This document shows, in pieces, positions 1 through 8,708 of a stretch of 29,892 nucleotides of DNA (the first letter of the stretch is position 1; every line of letters begins with the position of its first letter). The DNA lies in contig QMTJ01000001.1 in NCBI GenBank assembly GCA_003651045.1, forward strand, positions 1 to 29,892, read 5' to 3'. The DNA is from Thermoplasmata archaeon (GTDB taxonomy: Archaea > Thermoplasmatota > E2 > DHVEG-1). A program made the position numbers and the translations under genes. Under the pieces are notes generated by a model that did no database searches, was not told the origin of the DNA, and saw only the letters and a list, made by a program, of their open reading frames with translations.

Positions 1-91
1 CGATAAACGATAACATTTTTTAATTAACTATTCATTACATCTAATCAATGAGATAGAAGGGTAAAATATTTTTTCGTCTCATGTCGAAGAG

Positions 92-1351
92 GTGTTAGAC
101 GTGTCAAGAAAAGTATGTATAGTTGGTGGAGCTACTACTCCTTTTGATTATGGACCAACAGGTTTTGAAAGCATTGAAGGTGGAGCAGCTGAATGTGTTA
201 GAGAAACCCAGAGGGATATACCTGATTTTTCTCTCAGGGATCTCGATTTGATGATTTATTCTCATTTCTCTGTACATTTTGGTCATCAGCTTTCTTCTGA
301 GTGGATTATCCATGATCATCTTGGTCTTGTAGGTGTTCCTCATTATAGAGTAGAGAATGGCGGTAACACGGGTGGTTCAGCATTATATGCTGCTGCTCTA
401 GCAGTTATGTCTGGTCATCATGATGTCGTTGGTATAGTTGGTTGGGAGACTATGGATTCTGTATCCCAGTCGCAGGGTAGTGAGTTTATAGCTATGGCAT
501 CTGATATCAGATATGAGCTCATGGTTGGTGGAATCTACCCGATTTATTATGCTGCCATGGCAAATAAATGGATGAAAGACAACAATGTCACTGAAGAAGA
601 TGTTGCAACTATTGGTGCTAAAAATAGGAATAATGCTATGGATAACCCAAAAGCTCAGTGGTACCGAAACGAACATAGATATATAACTGTAGATGATGTG
701 ATGAACTCACGTCTTATTTCTTATCCTATTAAAAAATATGATTGCTGCTTGATGACAAGAGGTGTTGCTTTTCTACTCGTATGCTCAGAGGAATATGCTA
801 AAAAAGTAAACCCAGATGGATATGTAACTATTGATGGAATAGGTCTCTCTAGTTGTACAATCCGTGCTGGTGACAGGTTGAATTTCCCAAGATGGAATGA
901 GTTATATGGACAGGGTTATCCTGAGATGACTGAGTTTGCTGCTTGTCGCAACTCTGCTGAGCAGGCTTATAAGATGGCTGGTATCGAAAACCCGTTGAAA
1001 GAGATTGATTTTGGTGAGATACACGATGCGTTTTCAACATCTGAAGCACAGATTTATAAAGCACTTGGTTTAGCTGATACCAATAATATTGCACAGTTTT
1101 TACGTGATGAGAGTACACATATGCATGGTGAAATACCTATGAACCCAGGCGGTGGACTAATGGGGTATGGTCACCCTGTTGGTGCAACAGGTGTTATGAG
1201 TGCTATTGAGTGTTTCTATCAGTTATCTGGTTTGATCCCAAAGAAACATCTTAGTAGAAAAACTGAGGTACCCGATGCCGAATGTGGGATAGTTAACAGT
1301 CACGCTGGTACAGGTACTAGTATTTCTAATTTTATTTTAAGGAGGCATTGA
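92..1351 (+). CDS. Thiolase-superfamily protein (SCP-x/archaeal type) lacking the nucleophilic Cys
   Basis: Thiolase motifs EIHDAF and GGLMGYGHPVGATG, N-terminal VCIVGG, and YAAMA..WM helix. VENGGNTGG stands where the family has E-x-x-C-A-S-G. The likely start is GTG at 101, after SD GAGGTG at 89-94. Confidence 0.9.
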   Translation: MLDVSRKVCIVGGATTPFDYGPTGFESIEGGAAECVRETQRDIPDFSLRDLDLMIYSHFSVHFGHQLSSEWIIHDHLGLVGVPHYRVENGGNTGGSALYAAALAVMSGHHDVVGIVGWETMDSVSQSQGSEFIAMASDIRYELMVGGIYPIYYAAMANKWMKDNNVTEEDVATIGAKNRNNAMDNPKAQWYRNEHRYITVDDVMNSRLISYPIKKYDCCLMTRGVAFLLVCSEEYAKKVNPDGYVTIDGIGLSSCTIRAGDRLNFPRWNELYGQGYPEMTEFAACRNSAEQAYKMAGIENPLKEIDFGEIHDAFSTSEAQIYKALGLADTNNIAQFLRDESTHMHGEIPMNPGGGLMGYGHPVGATGVMSAIECFYQLSGLIPKKHLSRKTEVPDAECGIVNSHAGTGTSISNFILRRH

Positions 1352-1357
1352 ATAAAT

Positions 1358-2023
1358 ATGAGTAGAATAATTGCTAAGAATAAGAAAAAATATGCTGATG
1401 CACCTGTTTTTACAGAAAAAAAATCTTATAGGCCAGAAGGTGTTAAAGAAACTGGTCTTGCTTTTGTTGGTCATGAGATCTCTGATGATAGAAAGGTGAT
1501 GAACCAGTTTTTACATTATGACCAACTTTATACAATTAGACATGGTTGGAATAGCCCGTTTTTTATAGGGTTATTAGATGGTAAAATCCTTGGTACACGT
1601 TGCCCAAGATGTGGTGATACTTGGGTACCACCTAGGACTCATTGTTGGAATCTAGATTGTAACCTTCAACGTACAGAGTGGGTCGAAATGCCACTTACAG
1701 CGAGGGTTCATACTTGGACTGTCGCTGGTTGGAGTGGACGATCGTCTCTAAAAAGGTTACCTATTGTTTTAGTTTACGCTGTTATAGGTGATAGCAAAGT
1801 CGCTATTGCGAATGAACTCCATGGTATAGATCCATGGGATGTAGAGTTTGATATGCCTCTAAAAATTGTTTTTAAACCAAAAGAAGAACGAATAGGTGCC
1901 GTTACGGATTGGTATTTTGAACCAGCTGACAGCTGGGAACCTTCCCCGATGAATGAGGAGAAAGAACGGATTAAAAAACTTGTTGAACCAGTCTATGAAT
2001 GGGTGAAAACATTAAAAAAATAA
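1358..2023 (+). CDS. DUF35-family Zn-ribbon/OB-fold protein, thiolase partner
   Basis: CPRCG..VPPRTHC Zn ribbon followed by OB-fold strands (ARVHTWT, PIVLVYA). It starts 7 nt after the thiolase, with SD GGAGG at 1341-1345. Confidence 0.9.
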   Translation: MSRIIAKNKKKYADAPVFTEKKSYRPEGVKETGLAFVGHEISDDRKVMNQFLHYDQLYTIRHGWNSPFFIGLLDGKILGTRCPRCGDTWVPPRTHCWNLDCNLQRTEWVEMPLTARVHTWTVAGWSGRSSLKRLPIVLVYAVIGDSKVAIANELHGIDPWDVEFDMPLKIVFKPKEERIGAVTDWYFEPADSWEPSPMNEEKERIKKLVEPVYEWVKTLKK

Positions 2024-2048: not shown

Positions 2049-2074
2049 ATTCTTTTTTTATTTACTTTATTTCA

Positions 2075-3091
2075 ATGGAATATGTAGCAGGAGCAATACT
2101 TACAATTGATGGTTTTAAAAAAGGTTACCTAGGTTTCGAGAATGGTAGAATAGTTGAAACTGGTACTGATCGGTCACCAGTTAAACCAGTTTGTAAAGGA
2201 CTGATAATACCTGGTTTAGTAAATATTCATACCCATATTGGTGACTCGTTTGTTAGGAAGAAAAACATTGATCTACCAAGGGATGTAGAATCACTTGTTG
2301 GTCCACCAGATGGTTTGAAACATCAACTATTAAGTAATGCTTCTGATGAGGAAATAGTAGAAGGTATGAAAGATTCTATTAACATTATGATAGAATCTGG
2401 CACATTTGTTTTTTGTGATTTTAGAGAAGGCGGTGTTCATGGTGTTACACTGTTGAAACAGGCATTAAATGATTATAAAGTTTCCCCAGTAGTTTTGTCT
2501 AGACCACAGGGTTTATGTTATGATCGCGATGAAATTGATTCTCTACTGAGGTGTTCACATGGTATTGGTGTTAGTAGTATCTCTGACTGGAGTTATACGG
2601 AGTTGGAGAAAATCGCGAAGCATACAAAAAGGAGGAAAAAGTTTTTTGCTCTTCATGCTTGTGAACGGGTGAGAGAAGATATTGATCTTATTCTTGATTT
2701 GAAACCTGATTTCCTAGTTCACATGGTTAAAGCAAATAGGGATGATCTATTACGTGTCAAGGATAATGATATACCTATTGTTTTATGTCCTCGTTCTAAC
2801 ATGTTTTTTGGTTTAAAACCTAATATAAAGGTTATGAAACAGGTTGGTGTTGATATATTACTTGGTACTGATAATGGTATGTTAAACTCACCGGTGATAG
2901 TTGATGAAGTAAAATTTTTAAAAAATCAATACTCTGATGTGTTTTCAACAGATGAACTTTTAAACATGGTTACATATAGGGCTAGGAAAGTTTTAAATTT
3001 AGATTGTGACATTCTCTGTCCCAATTCCAAAGCAGAGTTTGTAGTGTTACATGAGAAATCATTAAAGCCTTTGTACATATCTCTGGTTTAG
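2075..3091 (+). CDS. Amidohydrolase-superfamily metal-dependent hydrolase (deaminase-like)
   Basis: PGLVNIHTH (HxH), HACE (HxxE), LVHM and LGTDN metal-binding motifs. Confidence 0.85.
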   Translation: MEYVAGAILTIDGFKKGYLGFENGRIVETGTDRSPVKPVCKGLIIPGLVNIHTHIGDSFVRKKNIDLPRDVESLVGPPDGLKHQLLSNASDEEIVEGMKDSINIMIESGTFVFCDFREGGVHGVTLLKQALNDYKVSPVVLSRPQGLCYDRDEIDSLLRCSHGIGVSSISDWSYTELEKIAKHTKRRKKFFALHACERVREDIDLILDLKPDFLVHMVKANRDDLLRVKDNDIPIVLCPRSNMFFGLKPNIKVMKQVGVDILLGTDNGMLNSPVIVDEVKFLKNQYSDVFSTDELLNMVTYRARKVLNLDCDILCPNSKAEFVVLHEKSLKPLYISLV

Positions 3092-7285: not shown

Positions 7286-8623
7286 CTAAAACGTTTTAAG
7301 CGTCTCGTCTAATATTTCAAGGATTTTATCGATTTCTTGAGATGATATAATAAGAGGTGGTCTGAATCTAAGTGTTTTTTCACCGCATCCTAGTATTACT
7401 AAACCATTAGCATATAATTTGTTTTTTAACTCATCTCTTCTCTTAGGATTAGGGAGATCAAAAGCGCACATAAGACCGCGCCCGCGAACATTAGATATTA
7501 TATTAGGATATTTATCACCTAACCTTGTAAGTTCCTCTAATAAATGTTTACCTTGTACTTCTGCGTTTTTAACAAGTTTTTCTTCCTTGATTACTTCGAG
7601 ATATTTCTGGCATCTAACCATGTCAACAAGGTTTCCACCCCATGTAGAGTTAATACGGCTTGAAACCTTGAAAACATTATCTTTTACTTCATCAACACGT
7701 GAAGTAACCATGATCCCGCATACTTGTGCTTTTTTACCGAAAGCTATTATATCTGGTTTAAAATCAAAATGTTCATAAGCCCACATTTTACCTGTGAGTC
7801 CTACACCTGTTTGTACTTCATCAAGTATAAACATGATCTCATGCTCATCACAGAGTCTACGTAGTTCATGGAAAAACTCTTTACGGAAATGATTATCCCC
7901 GCCTTCACCCTGTATTGGCTCTATTATAAGAGCCGCTATATCATCAGGGTTATCAGATACTGCTTTTTCAATCTCAGATACAGCTTGTTTCTCTAAATTT
8001 TGAACCTTTCTAAGGTTTTTTTCGTTTAATGGAAACGTGATTTTTGGGTTAGTAACCCTTGGCCATTTAAATTTTGGGAAATATTTTGTTTTATCAAGAT
8101 TGAATGTATTAGTCATAGAAAGGGTATACCCTGTCCGTCCATGGAATGCTTCTTTAAAATGTATAACTTGGTTACCTAACTCTTGTTTTTTACCGTTTTC
8201 AAAGTTTTTACGTATTTTCCAGTCAAAAGCTGTTTTCAGACCGTTTTCTACAGCTAATGCACCACCACTTACGAAAAACAGGTGTTTAAAATAACTGGGG
8301 ACAGCATGTTTCACGAAACTATCGACGAATTCTGCCATTTCAACAGTGTATACATCTGAGTTAGTTGGTTTATTCACTGCTACTTCACCGATTTTTTTTA
8401 TAAACTCAGGGTTTGATAGTTTCGGGTGGTTGCATCCTAATGGCGCTGAGGCAAAAAAGGAGAAACAATCGAGTAAATATTTATTATGACGTGAGTCATA
8501 TATTTTACATCCCTTACTTTTTTTTAAATCCAGAACGAGGTCGAAACCATCTACAAGTATGTATCTGGATAATGTTGCATGGACGTTTTTTGGTTGAACT
8601 GTCATGATTTTTTGTTCCTCCAT
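7286..8623 (-). CDS. lat: L-lysine 6-transaminase (class III PLP aminotransferase)
   Basis: ILVDGFDLVLDL, AFHGRTGYTLS, QGEGGD, DEVQTGVG..GKKAQVCG (PLP Lys) and RINSTWGGN, as in actinobacterial Lat. The probable start is ATG at 8605, after SD GGAGG. Confidence 0.92.
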   Translation of the reverse strand: MEEQKIMTVQPKNVHATLSRYILVDGFDLVLDLKKSKGCKIYDSRHNKYLLDCFSFFASAPLGCNHPKLSNPEFIKKIGEVAVNKPTNSDVYTVEMAEFVDSFVKHAVPSYFKHLFFVSGGALAVENGLKTAFDWKIRKNFENGKKQELGNQVIHFKEAFHGRTGYTLSMTNTFNLDKTKYFPKFKWPRVTNPKITFPLNEKNLRKVQNLEKQAVSEIEKAVSDNPDDIAALIIEPIQGEGGDNHFRKEFFHELRRLCDEHEIMFILDEVQTGVGLTGKMWAYEHFDFKPDIIAFGKKAQVCGIMVTSRVDEVKDNVFKVSSRINSTWGGNLVDMVRCQKYLEVIKEEKLVKNAEVQGKHLLEELTRLGDKYPNIISNVRGRGLMCAFDLPNPKRRDELKNKLYANGLVILGCGEKTLRFRPPLIISSQEIDKILEILDETLKTF

Positions 8624-8708
8624 TTTTTTTAGAAAACTAAGAAAATGTATCTTTAGTTAAAGCGGTATCTCTATTTTTTATAAAATGGTATCGGTATAGC
8701 TTCTTTTT

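Follow-up and report, generated by a model that had tools for sequence, protein, structure and literature searches.

Two genes at the start of a 29,892-nucleotide (nt) stretch of DNA from a Thermoplasmata archaeon (contig QMTJ01000001.1 of assembly GCA_003651045.1; hereafter the window) encode a thiolase-fold protein with glycine in place of the catalytic cysteine and, directly after it, a DUF35 protein. The thiolase-like gene occupies positions 92-1351 of the forward strand as an open reading frame (ORF) of 419 amino acids (aa), and its partner occupies 1358-2023 of the same strand (221 aa). The true start of the first gene is probably the GTG at 101 (416 aa), because orthologues begin three codons downstream of 92, behind a GAGGTG identical to the one at 89-94 in the window; residues are numbered here from the ORF starting at 92. 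Matches to Pfam (Thiolase_C_1, 88.8 bits; Thiolase_N, 33.2 bits), NCBIfam and the PDB, together with an AlphaFold2 model built on 53 relatives (pLDDT 92), identified a thiolase fold of five layers, made up of an N-terminal and a C-terminal thiolase domain. The best curated match, PRK06365 (NF004982, "thiolase domain-containing protein"), a family without assigned function, was full-length and scored 345.4-346.5 bits against a cut-off of 695, so the protein is not a member.

We confirmed by HMMER alignment that the nucleophile loop, VENGGNTGGS (350-379, residues 87-96), places Gly91 (GGT, 362-364) opposite the acyl-enzyme cysteine of the archaeal thiolases 6esq (RVEAACASG) and 7yvy (IEAACASG), as an earlier sequence-only reading of this DNA had proposed; Gly91 also aligned with the nucleophile cysteine of zebrafish SCP2-thiolase. 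That reading had further stated that HDAF (1022-1033) and GHPxGATG (GHPVGATG, 1169-1192) are kept, which holds for both thiolase histidines, His311 of HDxF and His361 of GHP, but overlooked that HDAF aligns with the canonical HDCF, so that a second catalytic cysteine is lost as well. The HDCF cysteine is the acid/base in SCP2-type thiolases (PMC12329534); the position is occupied by Ala313 here and by alanine in 100% of close relatives, versus cysteine in 89% of canonical thiolases. The protein therefore has neither the nucleophilic nor the acid/base cysteine of the SCP2/archaeal thiolases (EC 2.3.1.9/2.3.1.16). The C-terminal active-site loop NSHAGTG (1295-1315), with Ser403 and His404, was also correctly located, and its want of a CxG, which the earlier reading had noted, proved unremarkable, since archaeal thiolases that do have the nucleophile cysteine show N[IV]GGTG at this place and so lack CxG too. 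Ser403 aligned with the asparagine of archaeal-type thiolases, which we take to be the classical thiolase base position. Two further loops were altered: the DGAA loop shows a change to RGVA, and strand N-beta-2 is followed by a clade-specific, His-rich HFSVHFGH (263-286), a candidate substrate-pocket element, where canonical thiolases read MSxGR. With both catalytic cysteines lost, the ping-pong thiolase mechanism is impossible for this protein.

These features are conserved. At E <= 1e-20, a database search gave 424 proteins. Every one of the 64 full-length relatives with 60-92% identity has [ED]NGGNT[GA]G, HDAF, GHPVGATG and NSHAGTG, and 27 further full-length relatives at 36-46% identity also read GG; despite 60-92% overall identity, the loops ENGGNTGGS, GHPVGATG and NSHAGTG are nearly invariant. 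In a quick maximum-likelihood (ML) tree, the GG sequences were monophyletic (SH-aLRT 99) and stood apart from the Cys-bearing thiolases, with His404 gained within the clade after its first split (36 of 41 aligned GG-clade rows), while His361 is invariant across the clade. No cysteine column was conserved in the same 41 rows: C218 occurs in 28 and C219 in 30, C218 aligns with the cysteine in the HCSPVSDG loop of Cys-bearing thiolases, and C255 and C285 are confined to the close subfamily. The alternative nucleophiles that the earlier reading had named, the cysteines of KYDCC and AACR, consequently find no backing in the alignment. Against orthologues, the nonsynonymous rate (dN) was 0.05-0.07 with the synonymous rate (dS) saturated, and their ratio (omega) came to approximately 0.03 in the thiolase-like gene and to 0.04-0.07 in its DUF35 partner; both genes are, by these estimates, under strong purifying selection. 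The loss of a key catalytic residue could in principle mark a decaying pseudogene or an assembly artefact. This explanation was rejected and we regard it as virtually impossible, as the conservation data refute it: both ORFs are intact, omega is that of a constrained gene, hundreds of relatives share the loop, and the pair is present in 58 of the 108 genomes of the family in the Genome Taxonomy Database (GTDB), including 23 of 42 high-quality ones. The cysteine loss is, on this evidence, ancient and under selection, a product of neither chance nor decay. The claim that the protein is not a Claisen thiolase is thus well supported by the loss of both cysteines, the lack of a conserved cysteine column and the age of the change.

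The best solved sequence relatives were the archaeal acetoacetyl-CoA thiolases 7yvy (Pyrococcus furiosus, E = 1e-44) and 6esq (Methanothermococcus thermolithotrophicus), which are also the best fold matches; 6esq_A, the thiolase of an archaeal complex of thiolase, hydroxymethylglutaryl-CoA (HMG-CoA) synthase (HMGCS) and DUF35, ranked first (TM-score 0.87/0.93). These enzymes share with the window protein the HDxF and GHP histidines, an N-x-G-G-T-G-type loop and a separate DUF35 protein. The window protein differs from them in the glycine for the nucleophile cysteine, the alanine for the HDCF cysteine, a histidine gained in the loop and, in the model, an 11-residue insertion at 266-276 predicted to contact the partner; in addition, the pair has no adjacent HMGCS and its DUF35 protein is about 80 residues longer than that of the 6esq complex. 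By these comparisons, the thiolase-like protein derives from the archaeal thiolase branch.

The earlier reading had likened the pair to Ltp2, and the architectural part of that analogy stands. The steroid side-chain retro-aldolases Ltp2-ChsH2 (6ok1) and Sal-Shy (9myr) likewise join a Cys-less thiolase fold to a DUF35 protein, which in those systems brings in the preceding pathway enzyme; Sal has glycine at the nucleophile position, as the window protein does, and the partner's best fold matches are the DUF35 chains of Sal and Ltp2 (9myr_B, 6ok1_B), by a small margin. That the pair is an orthologue of these aldolases working by the same mechanism is nonetheless very improbable. The residues that define the aldolases are the Tyr base of Ltp2 YDHF, Tyr344 of TcLtp2, and Tyr302 and Cys304 of Sal YDCY (PMC12329534); with HDAF, the window protein has neither the Tyr base nor the Sal Cys304, although Tyr344 of TcLtp2 may, to judge by spacing, correspond to the GHP histidine. 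The protein scored 156 bits to an archaeal thiolase versus 56 bits to Ltp2 (6ok1), Foldseek ranked Ltp2 34th and Sal 36th among the fold matches, and no hydratase or steroid genes lie nearby. The window DUF35 protein is free-standing, whereas that of the Ltp2/Sal systems is fused to a hydratase, and the context is archaeal and non-steroid; the relation is distant. [quoted passage not shown] Since archaeal acetoacetyl-CoA thiolases are its nearest kin in both sequence and fold, the protein lost its cysteine independently of Ltp2 and Sal.

We next describe the partner. DUF35 proteins combine a zinc ribbon (PF12172) with an oligonucleotide/oligosaccharide-binding (OB) fold (PF01796). The partner scored near the Pfam thresholds (25.6 and 23.0 bits, where the cut-offs are 27.1 and 23.2) and exceeded the cut-off in the genome search (28.0 bits). 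Its model (pLDDT 87.5) comprises an N-terminal four-strand extension, a helix, the zinc ribbon, the OB fold and a C-terminal helix of 20 residues. The ribbon, CPRC...CWNLDC (1601-1660), is of the four-Cys rubredoxin-like kind, and its cysteines (C82, C85, C96, C101) are invariant in 23 aligned partners. All 21 fold matches at E <= 0.001 were DUF35 chains or the DUF35-like protein Trf, led by Sal-Shy, ChsH2, 6esq, SSO2064, BbsA and PhlB, so the earlier assignment of the partner to DUF35 is secure. Approximately 85 residues lie beyond the DUF35 core, in N- and C-terminal extensions that are both conserved; the former is a four-strand sheet, and the conserved NQFLHYDQLYTIRHGWNS segment runs into the helix.

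Several observations tie the two proteins together. The stop-to-start gap between the genes is 6 nt and an AGGAGG (1340-1345) lies within the last thiolase-like codons, 12 nt ahead of the partner's ATG, which indicates translational coupling. A DUF35 gene follows in all 34 close loci. The same holds for every one of the 32 twenty-kilobase (kb) neighbourhoods that yielded the thiolase-like gene, of which 11 contain distant homologues. A natural fusion of 752 aa (P0253) combines a GG thiolase-like part (35% identity) with a homologue of the long partner (27% identity, E = 7e-11). The 24-kb contig that carries it, from an ENA metagenome, has neighbours of eukaryote type (histone H2A, Not3/NOT2_3_5, RRM, TRAM/LAG1 and TADA2A-like). 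Co-folding of the pair gave a score of 0.89, whereas the best control scored 0.00; of 80 solved complexes 58 attain that mark, and of 110 mismatched pairs 2 do. Three runs shared at least 92% of contacts, with a partner pLDDT of at least 86. As thiolase/DUF35 complexes have already been solved, this result speaks for likeness to solved complexes and does not demonstrate binding. The predicted interface comprises residues 125-168, 207-215 and the clade-specific 258-267 of the thiolase-like protein and, on the partner, a conserved AGWSGRSSL strand, the ribbon and both extensions.

To inspect the genes upstream, as the earlier reading had advised, we turned to another contig of the same assembly (C19), whose reverse-complemented start is identical to window positions 1-123 (L165:1-123, minus strand). 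The exact 123-nt overlap makes the two contigs joinable, and the join is backed by synteny in relatives. A gene for a 645-aa ligase on C19 (161-2095, minus strand) ends 34 nt before window base 1, which, because the contigs overlap exactly, puts it 125 nt upstream of the pair. By homology, the gene is an AMP-forming acyl-CoA ligase of the acetyl-CoA synthetase (ACS) family: it scored 684 bits on an NCBIfam acetate--CoA ligase subfamily model, above that model's cut-off and below the equivalog cut-off. Where acetyl-CoA synthetases read DTWWQTETGG, it reads NISGGTEIVG. The second tryptophan of the acetyl-CoA synthetase motif limits the pocket to acetate, and its replacement by glycine admits longer acids; because this acetate-pocket tryptophan is replaced by glycine, the ligase is unlikely to be acetate-specific.

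The linkage to CoA activation recurs. Twenty neighbourhoods of twenty kb were compared, 19 of them in relatives of the same GTDB family and the other in a member of the same order; in 19 of the 20, a same-strand ligase or fused CoA-transferase lies upstream, directly or one gene away. The fused CoA-transferase is a GctAB-like protein of 606 aa whose best solved relatives are both subunits of glutaconate CoA-transferase (1poi), and in sister genera this glutaconate-type enzyme takes the slot of the ligase; its orthologue was not found in the organism's own assembly, which is 84% complete. The ligase orthologue occurs in 28 genomes of the family. In at least 17 of these the GG gene is its immediate neighbour on one contig, and another 4 have both genes; apart from three genomes described below, the remaining 4 ligase-bearing genomes are 63-66% complete. 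In an independent, distant member of the GG clade (P0092), ACAS_N/AMP-binding ligases lie on either side, two in all, and acyl-CoA dehydrogenase genes are neighbours in three lineages.

In three further genomes the thiolase-like component takes another form. G388, G402 and G427 carry the ligase orthologue followed by two Cys-less thiolase-like paralogues and two DUF35 genes (the 2+2 module). In G388 (L174:6898-10335) and G402 (L175:6490-9975) this module sits in the identical slot, before the same amidohydrolase, cystathionine-beta-synthase-domain (CBS) and glycyl-tRNA synthetase genes that follow the pair in the window, and in G427 it lies next to the ligase on contig C17. Like the pair, the Ltp3/Ltp4-like 2+2 modules combine the thiolase fold with DUF35 and lack the cysteine; they differ in having four genes rather than two and show 30-36% identity to the window protein. 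Another genome, G325, carries both the GG pair and a 2+2 module.

Such an exchange in place for a module without any thiolase catalytic residue suggests that what is shared is the architecture and not an active site, and it thereby favours a non-catalytic role, in which the pair would bind CoA esters and serve as a scaffold, channel or regulator for the ligase, the CoA-transferase or another enzyme. The loss of both catalytic cysteines fits this role, as do the partner's large conserved extensions, which would be free for additional contacts, and DUF35 proteins are documented scaffolds (PMC12329534; bioRxiv 10.1101/2024.07.05.601840; PMC12960953), with precedents in the DUF35 protein of the thiolase/HMGCS complex and in PhlA of the PhlABC acyltransferase complex. 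We nevertheless consider a purely non-catalytic module unlikely, although it is a serious rival. Conservation in the protein peaks in what were the active-site loops, as expected of a working site, His361 is invariant and His404 is a conserved gain, and in Asgard and other lineages the pair also occurs where no ligase or transferase is adjacent for it to serve.

We therefore favour, tentatively, a working enzyme. Strong conservation of what were the active-site loops argues for it, as do an invariant His361, a His404 gained within the clade and the recurrent link to CoA activation; there is a reasonable chance, somewhat short of an even one, that the pair is a Cys-independent enzyme acting on the CoA ester made by the upstream ligase. 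It would be a heteromer of a thiolase-fold subunit without both cysteines and a long DUF35 zinc-ribbon/OB subunit. Its substrate would be the CoA thioester supplied by the upstream gene, an ACS-family ligase with an enlarged pocket here and a glutaconate-type CoA-transferase in sister genera. His311 and His361 would still stabilise the thioester enolate, and, with no nucleophile, the reaction would be a non-covalent, acid-base cleavage or formation of a C-C bond at the alpha-carbon, in which His404 and Ser403, both in NSHAGTG, could supply the proton donor or acceptor that is otherwise missing. The loop domain would be clamped by the DUF35 extensions, where the ligase may also dock. The Gct-type transferase, the His-rich loop at residues 58-65 and the nearby dehydrogenases are weak hints of a short polar acid of about C4-C6, which we offer as a weak guess at the substrate.

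As to the reaction itself, retro-aldol-type cleavage of a 3-hydroxyacyl-CoA is a first guess, somewhat unlikely when taken alone; that reaction has precedent on the thiolase fold. The main sub-alternative, decarboxylation of a beta- or vinylogous-carboxy CoA ester, would need the fewest catalytic groups and seems to us less probable still. It has a weak precedent in TbSLP of Trypanosoma brucei (5ab4-5ab7), an SCP2-type fold without thiolase activity for which weak malonyl-CoA decarboxylase activity has been reported (cited in PMC12329534); TbSLP reads YDCF, has no DUF35 partner and matches the window protein distantly (E = 2e-4). The earlier proposal of non-thiolytic C-C cleavage or a non-catalytic subunit is thus supported in its non-thiolase part, while the kinship to aldolases that it implied is not.

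A number of points weigh against a Cys-independent enzyme coupled to the ligase. The 2+2 paralogues lack both thiolase histidines, with GN for GHP and VDDRF and PYDPF for HDAF, so a His-based mechanism is weakened should both modules serve the same function. The HDxF histidine is also missing from one GG subgroup, which reads FNPY there, and the position of His404 aligns with a residue that possibly points away from the active site. The aldolase precedent is not matched in detail, since HDAF stands for YDHF of Ltp2 and YDCY of Sal, with His311 and Ala313 at the positions of Sal Tyr302 and Cys304. Regarding the coupling, Asgard and some other loci have the pair without an adjacent ligase or transferase, and the upstream gene varies outside the family; in the window, the 125-nt gap between ligase and pair contains a likely promoter, so that the two may be transcribed separately.

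The isoprenoid pathway of the same genome bears on a further explanation. As the earlier reading had stated, the window contains no HMGCS; the gene lies on contig C49 with its own thiolase and a short DUF35 gene (L002:242-2895; HMGCS 242-1291, thiolase 1297-2472, DUF35 2476-2895). The same reading had held that archaeal mevalonate thiolases keep the cysteine, and this fails here: the thiolase of the C49 mevalonate operon reads RVESADASGG, with aspartate (GAT) at the nucleophile position, and HDSY for HDCF. Among its 120 closest database relatives, 29 also have aspartate. A FastTree phylogeny required at least three changes between cysteine and aspartate and contained one diversified clade of 26 Asp sequences, and further ADASG clusters were found among 50%-identity representatives. 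Only two thiolase-fold genes were found in this 84%-complete genome, neither with the nucleophile cysteine. In the 90 genomes of the family in which we compared it, the mevalonate thiolase almost always has cysteine, in genomes with and without the pair alike, with aspartate in 2 (one with the pair and one without) and serine in 1. Among these genomes, carriage of the GG pair showed no association with whether the mevalonate thiolase has aspartate or cysteine, and a link between the two was dismissed.

A second Cys-less thiolase in one genome is among the arguments for Claisen-type chemistry without an acyl-enzyme, by direct CoA or enolate attack in a ternary complex or with Cys218, Cys219 or His404 as the nucleophile. 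Further arguments are that the closest relatives of the window protein are true acetoacetyl-CoA thiolases, that both histidines of the thiolase oxyanion/activation machinery are kept, and that ligases of the ACS/acetoacetyl-CoA synthetase (AACS) family and family-I CoA-transferases are classical thiolase partners in keto-acid use. However, the cysteine data run counter to it: no such column is conserved in the clade, C218 is shared with Cys-bearing thiolases and so is not the nucleophile of those enzymes, and the acid/base cysteine is also gone. No thiolase-superfamily enzyme is known to perform Claisen chemistry without a covalent intermediate, and we judge this explanation distinctly improbable. 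We return, then, to the Cys-independent enzyme acting on the ligase product. It could be part of something larger: the GG/DUF35 pair, the 2+2 modules and perhaps the Asp-for-Cys mevalonate thiolases may represent a widespread, unrecognised, Cys-independent chemistry that makes or breaks C-C bonds in short acyl-CoAs, coupled to an ACS-family ligase and common to Asgard and other anaerobic archaea, with a fused homologue on a eukaryote-like contig, a possibility that we regard as doubtful at present.

The flanks of the pair were surveyed as well. The intergenic region upstream (1-91) contains, on the forward strand, a CGATAA(A)CGATAAC repeat and a TATA-like stretch rich in A/T. The direct repeat, CGATAAACGATAAC, lies in window 1-30, just upstream of the TATA-like stretch, and a similar CGATAAATCGATAAC occupies the same place in the orthologous locus L127; the repeat may be a regulator site. 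Downstream, a T-rich stretch (2050-2074, forward strand) between the partner's stop and the ATG at 2075 of the amidohydrolase gene probably marks the end of the two-gene unit. The amidohydrolase (2075-3091) scored 246 bits against a cut-off of 294 on NCBIfam PRK07213 ("chlorohydrolase") and is probably unrelated to the pair. In 10 of 21 family neighbourhoods, the window counted, synteny extends to it and to the genes for a four-CBS protein and glycyl-tRNA synthetase that come after it. A wider pathway operon beyond the ligase or transferase was considered and rejected, the downstream genes being housekeeping-like and lying beyond the T-rich stretch. Saccharopine-type genes (window 7286-11416) lie within 10 kb of the pair in 8 of the 21 neighbourhoods; in L006 (5141-7811), a saccharopine-dehydrogenase-like and an AlaDH/PNT-like gene stand divergently next to the pair, and their counterparts in the window (7286-10034) are 5 kb away. 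We read this as synteny rather than functional evidence.

To gauge family size, 1.84 billion cluster representatives were searched with a profile. The exact GG/H/A/H/H signature occurs in 9 of the 141 nearest full-length ones, and glycine at the nucleophile position in 35; Ser, Asp, Ala, Pro, Glu or Asn is also found at that position. This position varies widely among archaeal/SCP2-type thiolase relatives: P0113-P0120, labelled Anaerolineales, read ENGPASGG, with proline, and form a separate group inside the Cys clade, and Ser, Ala, Asn and Glu occur among 50%-identity representatives (P0241-P0388). Named members of the GG group come from Thermoplasmata, several Asgard groups, Bathyarchaeia, Methanolliviera, Syntropharchaeales, Geothermarchaeota, Nitrospinota and Chloroflexota and are labelled "acetyl-CoA C-acetyltransferase" or "thiolase domain-containing protein". 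Within the GTDB family the pair is patchy by genus, and elsewhere in the phylum other families have distant homologues, at 35-46% identity. The close subfamily mixes Thermoplasmata- and Asgard-labelled sequences at 70-84% identity, with the former nested in the diversity of the latter in a midpoint-rooted tree; as this identity is far above cross-phylum expectation, it suggests gene transfer or mis-binned contigs. P0008, P0022, P0026 and P0048, at 71-84% identity to the window protein, are labelled Hodarchaeales, Odinarchaeota, Lokiarchaeota and [Eubacterium] cellulosolvens.

Full-text literature searches found no paper on the GG family, and no characterised member was found among the relatives in control genomes and NCBIfam families. 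New here are the join to contig C19, which identified the ligase 125 nt upstream, the CoA-transferase in the ligase's slot in sister genera, and the exchange with the 2+2 module in three genomes, in two of them shown to be in the identical slot. For the organism itself, the want of a nucleophile cysteine in either thiolase-fold gene raises the question of the source of acetoacetyl-CoA for its isoprenoid lipids. More generally, metabolic reconstructions of Thermoplasmatota, Asgard archaea, Bathyarchaeia and alkane-oxidising archaea wrongly count GG proteins as thiolases, in beta-oxidation, fatty-acid synthesis or the mevalonate pathway. If the wider Cys-independent chemistry proposed above exists, a new reaction, for example that of a lyase or decarboxylase coupled to the ligase, or a Claisen condensation without a covalent intermediate, would lie under the label "acetyl-CoA acetyltransferase". 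In the enzymatic reading, the pair would represent a third catalytic solution on a Cys-less thiolase fold after Ltp2 and Sal, and possibly a C-C lyase for biocatalysis.

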